In this document: positions 41,944 through 57,625 of the stretch, one piece after another
How the letters are laid out: every line of letters begins with the position of its first letter
Numbering within the stretch: position 1 is the first letter of the stretch
IMG/VR virus record: IMGVR_UViG_3300013901_000006
Location: 15,774 to 79,773 of that record
Reading direction: 5' to 3' (one strand)
DNA from: a virus
Taxonomy: Duplodnaviria > Heunggongvirae > Uroviricota > Caudoviricetes
DNA: 64,000 nt
Translations under genes and position numbers: made by a program
Notes under the pieces: generated by a model
The model's input: the letters and a program-made list of their open reading frames with translations, nothing else
Told to the model about the DNA's origin: nothing
Databases searched by the model: none

Positions 41944-42015
41944 ATGTTACATTGCATTCTCTTGGGGGGGGGGGCTTGCGCCCCGCTAAATAATTTAGCT
42001 GATATTTGTGGCTGA
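41944..42015 (+). CDS. Poly-G leader peptide L1 (G11 at 41964-41974), currently coupled to the GTG at 42008
   Basis: AAAGGA SD; reads MLHCILLGGGACAPLNNLADICG*. TGA 42013-42015 overlaps GTG 42008. Confidence 0.7.
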   Translation: MLHCILLGGGACAPLNNLADICG

Positions 42016-42436
42016 ATTATATGCTTCAAATGGTACTGAATTTACAAAGCTACCTATTATGACAGCGGAGACAACCACTGACACAGAATATAATAATCAT
42101 TTTGCTACTGGTTTTTATTCCGTTAGAGGTGTTCCATCAACTAATGGAACAAGCAACGTCCCTTTCGGTCAATGGGGAAGTGTCTTATCTGATAATTCAA
42201 TTGGAACTCCTTGGCAAATTGCTATACCCGATGGCGCTAATAATTTATATATATATAAACGTGCTCAATCAAGTAACACTTGGTCAAAAATGAGTGCGGG
42301 GTATGCCGACAGCGCTGGAACAGCAACTAGTGCGAATCATGCCACGTCTGCTGGAAGTGCTGATAATGAGTATTCTATTATGGTTCAAGATACTCAGCCA
42401 ACAGATTCAAGATGTAAATTATGGATTCAACCTTAA
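42008..42436 (+). CDS. Short fibre extension module
   Basis: 142 aa, GTG start with no SD, C-terminal QPTDSRCKLWIQP. Confidence 0.65.
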   Translation: MAELYASNGTEFTKLPIMTAETTTDTEYNNHFATGFYSVRGVPSTNGTSNVPFGQWGSVLSDNSIGTPWQIAIPDGANNLYIYKRAQSSNTWSKMSAGYADSAGTATSANHATSAGSADNEYSIMVQDTQPTDSRCKLWIQP

Positions 42437-42452
42437 AATAATATAAAATAAA

Positions 42453-42536
42453 ATGTCTATGGGGGGGGGCATAGTATTTCACCTCTCCTCTCTAGAAAGG
42501 AGTCAATACTATGCCAAAAGCGTATTATCCAGTTAA
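42453..42536 (+). CDS. Poly-G leader peptide L2 (G9 at 42461-42469)
   Basis: MSMGGGIVFHLSSLERSQYYAKSVLSS* crosses the CTCCT/AGGAG SD hairpin. There is no SD for the leader itself. Confidence 0.5.
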   Translation: MSMGGGIVFHLSSLERSQYYAKSVLSS

Positions 42537-43770
42537 TGGTTCTTACAAAGAGTGGACACCAGATATGGTAGGAGCTGCTGCAAGTAGTCACACTCATGCT
42601 AAGGCTGATGTTGGATTAAGCAATGTAGATAATACGGCAGATGCAAATAAGTCTGTTAAATACGCAACGTCGGCTGGTAGCGCTACAACTGCTACTCAGC
42701 TATCCTCCTCTGCTGGTTCTACTACGCAGCCAGTATATTTTTCAAATGGAAAGCCAGTAGCAGCCACCGCATATTCAAGTGCTAGTGTAAATTATGCCAA
42801 TTCTTCCGGTTGGACGAAATCTTTAAATGGTGTAGCACATTATATTTCAACAGATACAAATACAGTACCTTATTATAGAATTGCAACGGTCGATACGAAT
42901 AGTTCTTATATGGATGCTTCTCTAGTTTTGTCACTAGACCAAGGATACCAAGACTCTTATTTTGGTATTTGCCGCATTTCTATGCGTACTGATGATATTG
43001 CTTCTGGTCAAACGGGGAGTTGCCATTGCGCTGTTGAATGGCTCGTTAATAACGGTATAGACAATTCAAAACTATTTTGTAATGTTTATTCTAAAGCTGG
43101 CGCCACTTGCTATGTAGACTTATATTTTAAAGCAACTAGTTCTTATGAAGGAGTTAACTTTAGAGTTATTTCGAATGGTTCAAGAGGTTCTAATGGTAGC
43201 ATTTGGGTACTGACAGGAGATGAACCAAGGGCTGCGGCAGATATTAGGACATATACGCAAACGAATGTCACAGCAAGTAATGTCGGTAGAGTAAACCATG
43301 CCAATAGCGCTGATAGCGCAAGTTCCGTTGTATGGACAAATGTCTCAGGCAGGCCATCAAGTATGCCCGCAAGCGATGTTTCATCTTGGGCAAAGGCATC
43401 ATCCAAACCTTCGTACTCTTGGAGTGAGATTTCATCTAAACCAACATTTGCCACTGTCGCTACAAGTGGTTCTTATAATGATTTATCTAATAAACCAACA
43501 ATTCCATCTGTAGGTAATGGTACTATTACAGTAACACAAGGTGGGACCTCCAAAGGTTCTTTTACGTTGAACCAATCTGGCAATGCAACCATCGCACTTA
43601 ACGACACAAATACTTGGAGAGGCGTTCAAAATAATTTAACTTCTACTGCGACCGATCAATCGCTCTCTGCGGCACAAGGTAAGATTTTAAATGATAAGTT
43701 AAATAGCCTTATTACTATTTCAAGCACTCAGCCAACAAGTAATGATTGTAAAATTTGGATTAAAATTTAA
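42511..43770 (+). CDS. Fibre extension / receptor-binding module
   Basis: 419 aa; N-terminal MPKAYYPVNGSYKEW, variable central domain, C-terminal QPTSNDCKIWIKI. Confidence 0.7.
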   Translation: MPKAYYPVNGSYKEWTPDMVGAAASSHTHAKADVGLSNVDNTADANKSVKYATSAGSATTATQLSSSAGSTTQPVYFSNGKPVAATAYSSASVNYANSSGWTKSLNGVAHYISTDTNTVPYYRIATVDTNSSYMDASLVLSLDQGYQDSYFGICRISMRTDDIASGQTGSCHCAVEWLVNNGIDNSKLFCNVYSKAGATCYVDLYFKATSSYEGVNFRVISNGSRGSNGSIWVLTGDEPRAAADIRTYTQTNVTASNVGRVNHANSADSASSVVWTNVSGRPSSMPASDVSSWAKASSKPSYSWSEISSKPTFATVATSGSYNDLSNKPTIPSVGNGTITVTQGGTSKGSFTLNQSGNATIALNDTNTWRGVQNNLTSTATDQSLSAAQGKILNDKLNSLITISSTQPTSNDCKIWIKI

Positions 43771-43786
43771 TAAAACTAGTTTAATT

Positions 43787-43820
43787 GAGGATTAGAAAAA
43801 TTTTCTAATCCTCTTTTTTT
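43787..43820 (+). terminator. Rho-independent terminator
   Basis: GAGGATTAGAAAA/TTTTCTAATCCTC stem + T7. Confidence 0.85.
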
Positions 43821-43903
43821 GTTGGACAAAAAAGTATAATTTACACTGTATTTCTTTCATATTTTATAGGCTATGTTGAAATAGAAAGGAATATTGCTGT
43901 AAT

Positions 43904-55855: not shown

Positions 55856-56301
55856 TGGCTAACTTCGTTAATCTCATGGATGTTATCTATCCTATTGGAA
55901 GTATATATGTTACCACAAGTGCCTCTAGCCCTTCAAGTATTGTTGGTGGAACTTGGTCTAAAATTGATAATGCATTTCTGTATTGCAACAACTCAAATTC
56001 AGGATATGTTGGCTCTAATCTTGTAACACTTAATTTAGACCATAATCATTTTCAAAGTTTAGCCTTTCCTGCTGGAAAAGTTACATACAGTACTAATCGA
56101 ACTGGTATTGGATGGCACGAAGGAAATGCGTCGATACCCGTAAACCCGATATTAACCGCCGATTCTAATTATAATCGGACTACTGATTCTTCTTTTTGGG
56201 GACAGGACTCAGCCAAACAAGCCCAAAAGAGACTAGGGAATGTGACCTTTGATAATAAACCGCATAGTTTGACATGTTATGGATATACTAGAACAGCCTA
56301 A
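55855..56301 (+). CDS. Gp10_C-like tip module M4
   Basis: Conserved ends ...YTRTA*. Confidence 0.75.
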   Translation: MANFVNLMDVIYPIGSIYVTTSASSPSSIVGGTWSKIDNAFLYCNNSNSGYVGSNLVTLNLDHNHFQSLAFPAGKVTYSTNRTGIGWHEGNASIPVNPILTADSNYNRTTDSSFWGQDSAKQAQKRLGNVTFDNKPHSLTCYGYTRTA

Positions 56302-56345
56302 GAAGATTTTATAATATTCTTTCTATTTAATTAGAAAGGATATAA

Positions 56346-56719
56346 ATGAGTAATTATGTAAACCTACTGGATATTGTGTATCCAGTAGGTTCAATCTATC
56401 ACAGCATGAATTCAACTTCACCTGCTACAAGCATTGGTGGCACATGGACAGCAATTAAAACTTTTCTGTTAGGTTCTACCACTTCTGGTAAGACTGGCGG
56501 AGAAGAAGTACATACGCTTACCATTAATGAAATGCCTGCGCATTCTCACGCGCAATATGTTACAGCAAACAGTGGCAATGAATCAGTTAGAAGCGACTAT
56601 TCTCGTGACCAACATGGTCTTATTTATCCACAGGGATGCGATACTGGTACCACGGGGGGCAAGCACACAACAATATGCCGCCCTACACGACTTGCTTCAT
56701 TTGGTACAGAACAGCTTAG
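56346..56719 (+). CDS. Gp10_C-like tip module M5, frameshifted at G6 (56654-56659)
   Basis: G7 gives GQAHNNMPPYTTCFIWYRTA* (stop 56717-56719). As assembled, the frame runs on to 57170. Confidence 0.8.
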
Positions 56720-56755
56720 TCGTACTGAAAGCAAACCTTCTAAGCGAGGTGGCGT

Positions 56756-57148
56756 ATGTCTAACTACGTTAACCTCTTGGACATCGTTTACCCAGTGGGT
56801 GCAGTTTATATCTCAAACAATTCAACAACACCAGCAAACATTATCGGAGGTACTTGGACAAAAGTTGCATCGGATACATTCATCTGCTCTGGGACACCAA
56901 ATGCAACGGGTGGAACAAATACTCAAAAGCTCTCCGTTAGCAATTTGCCATCGAACGTTTGGCTTACGGGTGGAACTTGCAAAAACTTTGGTTTACCGAC
57001 AGCACTATCTACATTGTTTAGTTCAGTTACCACATTTGGTATTGAAGCATCTCGTATTACAGATGACAAAACTCAACAATATAGTTATGAACCTTTCGAT
57101 AACCGTCCGCAATATAGAGCTTTTAACATCTATTACCGCACAGCCTAG
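56756..57148 (+). CDS. Gp10_C-like tip module M6
   Basis: Conserved ends ...YYRTA*. Confidence 0.75.
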   Translation: MSNYVNLLDIVYPVGAVYISNNSTTPANIIGGTWTKVASDTFICSGTPNATGGTNTQKLSVSNLPSNVWLTGGTCKNFGLPTALSTLFSSVTTFGIEASRITDDKTQQYSYEPFDNRPQYRAFNIYYRTA

Positions 57149-57169
57149 TCTTCTAGGAGGTGTTGCATA

Positions 57170-57625
57170 ATGGCGAATTATGTTAACCTCCTAGACATAG
57201 TTTATCCTGTTGGGTCTGTGTATATCACATTCAATTCTGTTAATCCCTCTGATTCAGTTGGTGGAACGTGGGAAAAAATTGAAGATAAGTTTCTGCAATC
57301 TTCTGGTACTAAAAATACATTAAATTCTATTGGCGGATCTTCCGTTGAAAAGCAATTGCATTTATGCTATGCAGCGTATTGGAGGGCATTGGTCACACTA
57401 GACAACGCATCAGGAGATTTAAGCATAATTGGTTTTGATAGTAATAGTGCAGAAGGTATGGAGAGCACAATGACATACTCGTCTTCCCCATGGAACCATG
57501 ATGCAAATGCCTGTTTGCAAAATGGTCAAACAAATAAGTCGAACCCAATTCTAGTTCATAGATACGTCACATGGGACAATAGACCATCTTATATAACTTG
57601 TAATATGTATAAACGTACAGCGTAA
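57170..57625 (+). CDS. Gp10_C-like tip module M7
   Basis: Conserved ends ...YKRTA*. Confidence 0.75.
   Translation: MANYVNLLDIVYPVGSVYITFNSVNPSDSVGGTWEKIEDKFLQSSGTKNTLNSIGGSSVEKQLHLCYAAYWRALVTLDNASGDLSIIGFDSNSAEGMESTMTYSSSPWNHDANACLQNGQTNKSNPILVHRYVTWDNRPSYITCNMYKRTA

Follow-up and report, generated by a model that had tools for sequence, protein, structure and literature searches.

The 64,000-nucleotide stretch of phage DNA analysed here (the window; IMG/VR record IMGVR_UViG_3300013901_000006, positions 15,774 to 79,773) is part of a single contig of 145,027 bp with 36.8% G+C, and carries a series of poly-G runs in its fibre and tail-tip loci. The best-supported reading of these runs, to which we give a probability of about 0.62 from their sequence context, is that they form a leader-coupling switch, in which the length of a G tract within a short leader open reading frame (ORF) would decide whether ribosomes are delivered to the start of the next gene. 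A preliminary description of the window had proposed such a mechanism. Its hypermutable tracts, its leaders with a Shine-Dalgarno (SD) sequence and ATG, its frame layout and its buried starts all stand, but its statements that the cassettes stay intact, that the third leader (L3) has an on/off state, that leaders never fuse in frame to the next gene and that the design lacks precedent had to be given up or amended. The G runs, in window positions, are as follows.

41964-41974, + strand: G11, in leader L1
42461-42469, + strand: G9, in leader L2
52069-52074, + strand: G6, in frame (SGGQ) inside a 954-aa fibre gene
52621-52626, + strand: G6, in leader L3
53763-53766, + strand: G4, a collapsed tract behind the leader ATG at 53761 and the tenth site
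54207-54215, + strand: G9, in leader L4
54755-54763, + strand: G9, in leader L5
55320-55328, + strand: G9, in leader L6
55769-55776, + strand: G8, inside tip cassette M3
56654-56659, + strand: G6, inside tip cassette M5

Eight of these runs had been located correctly in the preliminary description, with the right lengths and with C after each. It had also stated that the + strand holds no other run of six or more, and here it missed a ninth, the G6 at 52069; this run is replaced by other bases in the relatives L103 and X1-X4, and is probably there by chance because it is absent from L103, which is 99% identical to the window. In the entire 145,027-bp genome there are six runs of G8 or longer, all at window positions 41964-55776 and thus within less than 14 kb, where 0.2 would be expected from independent bases; apart from the runs listed above, G6 occurs just once more in the genome and C6 three times. 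The existence of the G tracts is confirmed, and their enrichment is far beyond chance. The runs of G8-G11 at these six sites are of the kind (uninterrupted, about 7 or more) that marks homopolymer contingency loci.

The lengths of these tracts also vary. The IMG/VR relatives of the window phage make up a family with 100-147-kb genomes, and their fibre and tip regions hold about 125 distinct homologous tracts of G7-G11 (mode G9), always with G on the coding strand and never as poly-C; the base that follows is C in 92% of all tracts. One L1-type leader, at L089:5950-5969, has a run of G20, compared with the usual 7-11. The nearest genomes are L103 (99.08% identity over 20 kb, with G11 and G9 at the first two sites) and four sister strains, X1-X4, about 99.5% identical to the window and available as consensus contigs from four runs of one 2016 study. 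At 41964, X1 and X3 have G10 whereas X2, X4, L103 and the window have G11, and at 42461 all six near-identical genomes have G9. At 52621, a tract of G9 in L103, X1, X3 and X4 contrasts with one of G6 in X2 and in the window, a difference that preserves the frame, as does that at 55320 (G9 in the window, G12 in X1). At 53763 the window has G4, L103 G10, X1 G6, and X3 and X4 G5; at 55769 the window has G8 and X1 G10; and at 56654 the window has G6, X1 and X3 G11, and X2 and X4 G8. At L3 and L6, here counted as the ON leaders, length differences between strains are by 3 nt only, which hints at selection for keeping the frame. Of the 12 indels listed for the four-run strains relative to the window, eight fall at tracts. 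Among relatives at least 97% identical, 13 indels lie in 25 tracts compared with 100 in 306 kb, an approximately 175-fold enrichment per nucleotide (nt), and the only differences between L107 and L118 in 20.5 kb are a single substitution and a single tract indel. The variation between related genomes that the preliminary description had anticipated is present: lengths change between near-identical genomes, and hypermutability is seen as DNA-level variation among consensus contigs, with indels concentrated at the tracts.

We propose that the G runs would be slipped-strand contingency sites acting mainly on translation. Each leader ORF would be translated from its own strong SD. In two length classes the ribosome would stop at most about 24 nt from the tract, inside a hairpin formed on the last G's of the tract, and after this early stop the next gene would stay shut, its SD or start locked in a second hairpin or its SD being absent. 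In the third class the ribosome would melt the second hairpin and end on or beside the next start (TAATG, NTGNNTAA or GTGA), and the cassette would then be translated through unmasking, termination-reinitiation or both. A tract inside a cassette would act differently. A tract that keeps the frame would allow a complete tip protein to be made, and would let ribosomes go 21-45 nt short of the next start. A tract that breaks the frame would ruin the tip and deliver ribosomes to the next cassette, and in the M5 type a stop-free overlapping frame would take them one cassette further. With all seven cassettes in a single operon, the combination of tract lengths would amount to a heritable, random choice of tip. 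From sequence we infer that ribosomes would be routed in this way, that the cassettes are receptor-binding and that their choice would alter host range. The leaders and the genes that they are proposed to gate are listed below; the genes gated by L4, L5 and L6 are the tip cassettes M1, M2 and M3.

Leader L1: 41944-42015, + strand; ATG at 41944, SD AAAGGAA at 41931-41937, hairpin at 41971-41984
Gene gated by L1: 42008-42436, + strand; 142 aa, MAELYASNG..., GTG start without its own SD
Leader L2: 42453-42536, + strand; ATG at 42453, weak SD
Fibre-module gene gated by L2: 42511-43770, + strand; 419 aa, MPKAYYPVNG..., Pfam Phage_fiber_rpt
Leader L3: 52595-52655, + strand; ATG at 52595 or 52603
Gene gated by L3: 52648-53175, + strand; 175 aa, AKAYYPVNG..., TTG start, without SD
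Collapsed leader: 53761-53805, + strand; ATG at 53761, in frame with the gene at TTG 53806
Gene gated by the collapsed leader: 53806-54090, + strand; 94 aa from the TTG, ARAYYPVDG...
Leader L4: 54177-54294, + strand; GTG at 54177, SD AAAGGAG at 54164-54170
Leader L5: 54723-54810, + strand; ATG at 54723, SD at 54708-54714
Leader L6: 55288-55389, + strand; ATG at 55288, SD at 55277-55283

The leader set comprised 68 leaders from the window and its relatives. Nearly all have an SD match of 5-8 nt, and the ATG or GTG start lies 5-14 codons 5' of the tract. A simulation of tract lengths reproduced the leader stop positions of the preliminary description and placed the stops of the other two classes of L1, L4, L5 and L6 at 26-69 nt upstream. 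For the six leader tracts of the window, a tract length that puts the leader in frame with the gene always leads to a stop first, in line with the earlier claim that leaders never fuse in frame, but the claim fails at the collapsed leader, whose ATG at 53761 is in frame with the gene downstream. With gene starts set independently by a longest-ORF rule, one frame ends within 8 nt of the next start in 64 of the 68 leaders (94%), at +5 in 34, -2 in 10, -3 in 9 and +1 in 7. This through-frame statistic alone was judged too weak, and a test of asymmetric layout, in which two of the frames meet a stop no more than 24 nt from the tract while the remaining one stays open to within 8 nt of the start, was used instead. 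The through-frame is present in 17 of 19 clusters (<70% identity) where 10.6 are expected (P=1.5e-4), and the asymmetric layout in 13 of 15 leader families where 1.34 are expected (P=7e-14), although these P values overstate independence because the leader families are remote homologues. The last G's and the following C start a hairpin whose 3' arm bears the stops of both short frames, so that these stops fall inside it. Between distant families the through-frame peptides diverge and the open frame is conserved; hypermutable tracts, leader SD and ATG, frame layout and buried starts all persist in relatives down to about 52-60% protein identity. The five positions before leader tracts (-5 to -1) are at least 90% pyrimidine, and in folds this CU stretch can pair with the downstream SD. 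Judged by tract length, 24 leaders are ON and 40 OFF, with both states in every larger family. The layout agrees with a proposed gating by length modulo 3 in that one frame in three reaches the next start and the other two stop at once, but L3 has no clear on/off state.

The starts of the gated genes are unusually buried, as the preliminary description had supposed when it placed them in hairpins. Freeing the region from SD to start costs, on average, 9.8 kcal/mol at gated genes and 4.9 kcal/mol at the other genes of these phages; at least 5 kcal/mol is needed at 92% of gated sites compared with 38% of the others (P=4e-29), and the SD pairing probability is 0.77 compared with 0.53. The anti-SD arm covaries with the SD, as AACCTCC/GGAGGTT, ACCTCCC/GGGAGGT, CACCCC/GGGGTG, GCCTC/GAGGT and TCTCCCTT/AAGGGAGA. 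In the L6-family hairpin, in which the SD is paired with the start codon, 98.6% of cells are paired whereas slid controls give 25-47%, and two pairs are changed on both sides, one of them compensating the ATG-to-TTG start of the window; covariation was counted solely within this family. Three gated families (AELY..., AKAYYP... and SEFYLSDG...) lack an SD and have GTG or TTG starts, which fits a dependence on an arriving ribosome. A stop near the downstream start and an SD or start that is sequestered or absent, both expected of translational coupling, are found together at the gated genes.

The individual leaders follow this plan to different degrees. At G11 the TGA stop of L1 overlaps the next start, GTGGCTGA, at 42008-42015, so the assembled state is predicted to be ON with the 42008 gene translated; relatives of this gene have an ATG start at the same residue. 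The L2 hairpin (42485-42502) pairs CTCCT with the SD AGGAG, and at G9 the leader is predicted to read across it, with a stop that begins 23 nt into the gene. The L3 hairpin (52635-52652) encloses the TTG start, and the state of L3 is ambiguous: all frames reach the hairpin, and on/off cannot be read because every frame ends inside it. In the collapsed leader, a hairpin at 53777-53799 pairs TCTCCCTT with the SD AAGGGAGA; here the G4 tract is in frame and predicted to be locked, a class that would give either an N-terminally extended protein or a locked-ON state. L4 has a first hairpin at 54215-54228 and a second at 54268-54288, in which AACCTCC is paired with GGAGGTT, and at G8 or G11 it ends at TAATG, 54292-54296. 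L5 has hairpins at 54761-54784 and 54782-54798, the second holding the SD GGAGGG, and at G8 or G11 ends at ATGAGTAA, 54803-54810. Both are G9 as assembled and are predicted to be OFF, with M1 and M2 shut. The two L5 hairpins have three bases in common (CCC, 54782-54784) and may for this reason be mutually exclusive, which would add an attenuation-like layer. L6 has a first hairpin at 55328-55343 and a second at 55365-55387, where the SD GAGG is paired with the TTG start; at G9 it ends at TTGGCTAA, 55382-55389, and its assembled state is therefore predicted to be ON.

Downstream of L4 to L6 lies an array of seven tip cassettes.

Strong terminator: 54098-54125, 3' of the 53806 gene, from a terminator scan
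M1: 54294-54680, + strand; 128 aa, Gp10_C (Pfam PF21939, E=5e-18)
M2: 54803-55243, + strand; 146 aa, Gp10_C (Pfam)
M3: 55382-55855, + strand; intragenic G8 at 55769-55776
M4: 55855-56301, + strand; 148 aa, Gp10_C; start region needing 12.4 kcal/mol to free
M5: 56346-57170, + strand; own SD at 56334-40, intragenic G6 at 56654-56659
M6: 56756-57148, + strand; 130 aa, Gp10_C; +1 frame without a stop codon
M7: 57170-57625, + strand; 151 aa, Gp10_C
Strong terminator: 57677-57706, 3' of M7, from the terminator scan

Because the array sits between strong terminators with none inside, M1-M7 are taken as one operon. All seven cassettes match Gp10_C, the C-terminal domain of T4 gp10, above the curated cut-off (E 5e-18 to 1e-9); a cassette profile matched the T4 gp10 chains 2fkk and 5hx2 weakly (E 0.01-0.05), and in tblastn the nearest named matches come from Lactobacillus and Streptococcus phages, as 'antireceptor' and tail proteins. 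The cassettes have their first ~45 and last ~20 residues in common and a hypervariable middle; an AlphaFold model of M1 has a mean predicted local distance difference test score of 62.5 and is confident at the conserved N- and C-terminal strands only. Cassette order is shuffled between the genomes of relatives.

The tracts at 55769 and 56654 lie just 5' of the conserved last strand of M3 and M5, both of which are shifted as assembled. In M3, G9 restores ...PYHYSMYVWRRTA* and puts the stop at 55828, a G8 tract leads to the TAATG at 55853-55857 that overlaps the M4 start, and G7 or G10 ends at ATGGCTAA (55855-55862). In M5, G7 restores ...NNMPPYTTCFIWYRTA* with a stop at 56717, and a tract of G5, G8 or G11 leads to a stop in ATGTCTAA at the M6 start; with the assembled G6, the reading frame continues for 169 codons across M6, out of the M6 frame, as far as the TAATG at 57168-57172 that overlaps the M7 start. 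Slippage had been thought to leave the cassettes intact, which is wrong for these two sites, as the conserved C-terminus ...W.RTA* needs G9 and G7 respectively. Relatives have 37 intragenic tracts, 17 intact and 20 shifted, and in nearly every case the stop of a shifted frame falls between -4 and +14 relative to the start of the next cassette. The third frame of the M5 type is open for 162-215 codons across the next cassette and mostly ends at TAATG on the following start. In M6 the alternative frame (130 codons) has no stops, compared with 7-9 in other cassettes, and ends at TAATG on M7; it is likewise open in six further cases (L080, L085, L113, L117 and two diverged L111 copies) and in L080, L085 and both L111 copies it ends at or beside the start after the next cassette. 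An overlapping frame free of stops is hard to explain unless it serves as a path for ribosomes, and it looks like a ribosome by-pass lane. In the assembled window M3 is predicted to be translated but shifted, so that M4 would be fed, and the shifted M5 is predicted to carry ribosomes past M6 to M7. In the four sister strains L1 is predicted to be OFF in two, and M5 to route to M6 in all four.

Besides the dependence among leader families, several observations count against a leader-coupling switch. A through-frame alone is found in 47% of other intergenic upstream regions and in 58% of shuffles, and the +5 stop arises from the conserved codons 2-3 (xxT AAy). The ratio of ON to OFF leaders, about 1:2, is also the expectation under neutral drift. 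Two frames of L2 overrun the start, and L3 stops at -8, -3 or +5, so that all three of its frames reach the start hairpin. The OFF stops of L5 are just 26-30 nt 5' of the start, and this OFF state may leak because a terminating ribosome already touches the hairpin and might reinitiate. Finally, an effect of length that is independent of frame is possible, since the G run and the pre-tract pyrimidines can pair with the SD region.

One alternative is that only the intragenic tracts matter, in the manner of Campylobacter Fletchervirus, and that the leaders are decayed stumps of deleted cassettes with no regulatory role. The behaviour of the 55769 and 56654 sites is just that of known polyG switches in receptor-binding-protein genes: they lie inside such an ORF, as do the 37 intragenic tracts of relatives, while the six leader tracts do not. 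The neutral ON:OFF ratio and the collapsed leader tracts, G4 at 53763 and G6 at 52621, would also suit this view. We nevertheless think it unlikely, as uninterrupted tracts, SD, start, early stops in two frames and the opening of the third persist between families of below 70% identity, and this conservation makes vestigial leaders improbable. Nor does it account for gated genes with buried starts or without an SD, or for the frame-preserving 3-nt changes in L3 and L6 among near-identical strains.

A second possibility, which we rate as no better than the first, is a graded effect of tract length, irrespective of frame, on the folding of the mRNA or on its recognition by a small RNA or protein. 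A model for this is the variable G-repeat in the Helicobacter pylori tlpB leader, the target of RepG (PMC8295292). The orientation of all tracts with G on the mRNA strand, the C that follows 92% of them, the pyrimidine-rich stretch directly 5' of leader tracts, and folds that pair the G run with CU stretches and the pre-tract CU stretch with the SD would all agree with it. It does not account for the conservation of an SD and ATG in the leaders, for stops whose position depends on the frame, for their overlap with the next start or for the stop-free frame of M6; no partner RNA was found, although none was sought.

Rather less probable is attenuation of the kind demonstrated for Streptococcus gallolyticus pil1 (PMC3894217), in which the hairpin after the tract would be a premature terminator suppressed only by long-frame ribosomes. 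The terminator scan picked up the first L4 hairpin (54213-54230), and a T-rich run follows the first L6 hairpin. However, ribosomes in any of the three frames reach the first hairpin, since the OFF stops are inside it, and it would thus be melted regardless of frame; its stems are short (5-7 bp), and in folds the T-rich run pairs with the G run. Only the second hairpin is frame-specific, and this holds the SD or start and has no U tail, so that a terminator reached by long frames alone is lacking here.

It is very improbable that the tracts sit in promoter spacers and alter the -35/-10 spacing. L6 does span TTAACA-17-TACAGT (55307-55335, 9/12 matches) and, by eye, L4 spans TTGACC-19-TACGGT, but promoter-like matches in the region are at chance level (54 compared with 49 +/- 6.7), one of eight tracts is spanned, the motifs are not kept in relatives as a promoter spacer would require, and the idea is inapplicable to the intragenic tracts. 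Least credible of all is an artefact of sequencing or assembly, either in the tracts themselves or in their differing lengths. Errors in the length of homopolymers are common and the comparison rests on consensus contigs only, but homologous sites occur in dozens of independent assemblies from several projects, and differences of 3-5 nt (6/9, 9/12, 6/11) are atypical of read errors.

Three further features border the leaders and their genes.

Fibre gene: 40398-41930, + strand; 510 aa, ending ...KIWVKIV*, Pfam Phage_fiber_2 (E=2.9e-8), upstream of L1
Terminator: 43787-43813, 3' of the L2-gated gene, from the terminator scan
Fibre gene: 49723-52587, + strand; 954 aa, ending ...CKLWIKV*, Pfam fibre repeats

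The fibre-module genes ending at 42436, 43770, 52587 and 53735 have in common a C-terminal motif, C-K-(I/L)-W-(I/V)-(K/Q)-x-stop. Together with the shared N-termini of gated genes (AKAYYP..., AELY...), this motif suggests that fibre segments are chained in plug-and-socket fashion. In L001, L002, L006, L011 and L046 the fibre, tip-cassette and baseplate blocks stand in a different order from that at 40000-58000 of the window, and in most relatives the cassette array is upstream of the homologue of the 43904 gene. As block order differs between relatives, leader-plus-cassette units appear to move as modules.

The host of this ~145-kb phage is probably a gut Firmicute, and a Gram-positive-type host is likely; an anaerobe of the human or animal gut would be the likeliest candidate. 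Relatives of the endolysin were found on two contigs of metagenome-assembled genomes, labelled Collinsella and Anaerovoracaceae, and among the neighbouring genes compared with PHROGs the endolysin gave the sole informative name. Searches of GenBank phages in near or distant mode returned zero nucleotide matches, so there is no cultured relative to work with, and tblastn with a baseplate protein gave no match.

A wider claim is that one operon with seven alternative tips, under heritable G-run routing through leaders and through two- and three-way intragenic points, may form a translational, enzyme-free combinatorial host-range generator that is common in uncultured gut phages; on this our judgement is evenly balanced. 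The model predicts that expression follows tract length modulo 3. If it is true, host-recognition proteins would be varied heritably and at random by a third general phage route to such diversity, besides DNA inversion and retroelement mutagenesis, and this route would need no dedicated enzyme and would act through where ribosomes stop. This would explain the 'frameshifted' tip genes and unannotated mini-ORFs in metagenomic assemblies of such phages, and would warn annotators against calling these genes pseudogenes. It would also matter for sequence-based prediction of the host range of gut phages, and would offer synthetic biology a compact, tunable stochastic switch.

Hypermutable polyG tracts are known from the receptor-binding-protein genes of Campylobacter Fletchervirus (Sorensen et al. 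2021, described in 10.1101/2025.10.21.683753). As far as that account goes, the two systems have in common G7-G11 runs in phage receptor-binding loci that create subpopulations with different tips, an outcome seen in Fletchervirus and predicted here, and at 55769 and 56654 a frameshift inside the gene. They differ in that most tracts described here lie outside the gated gene, in SD-bearing leader ORFs, would act by routing ribosomes and belong to another phage family. Homopolymer slippage in phage contingency loci has been described as bet-hedging, mostly at A/T runs inside ORFs that inactivate genes and with no leader or coupling design described (Gomez, Barrick and Waters 2025, 10.1101/2025.10.21.683753), and simple sequence repeats are under-represented in coliphage tail-fibre genes (10.1101/2025.10.21.683753). 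A literature search of incomplete coverage found no polyG leader-coupling switch in phages and no serial routing among tip cassettes, which is weak evidence of novelty. The preliminary description had not recognised the mechanism as described, but the leader-peptide switch of S. gallolyticus pil1 is a precedent: repeat slippage there alters the frame and length of a leader peptide, and only long-frame ribosomes melt a downstream stem-loop that otherwise shuts the operon (Danne et al. 2014, PMC3894217). The pil1 switch uses GCAGA repeats and a transcription terminator, whereas here a homopolymer is combined with a stem-loop hiding the SD or start; the leader stop overlaps the next start, many switches stand in series in one operon, and the carrier is a virus. 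In classical coupling and unmasking of ribosome-binding sites (MS2 coat-replicase, overlapping stop/start pairs, ermC-type leaders), ribosomes translating the upstream gene open the hairpin that covers the next SD. Overlapping stop and start codons (TAATG, ATGA and the like) are common to both, but classical coupling is constitutive or set by ligand or stalling, whereas here a heritable mutation would decide whether the ribosome arrives. Stochastic alternative receptor-binding ends within a lineage are also produced by Gin inversion in Mu, Cin inversion in P1 and the diversity-generating retroelements of BPP-1 (cited in PMC12823448). Those systems need an invertase or a reverse transcriptase and alter the DNA of the tip, whereas the switch proposed here would need no enzyme gene and would choose among complete cassettes.

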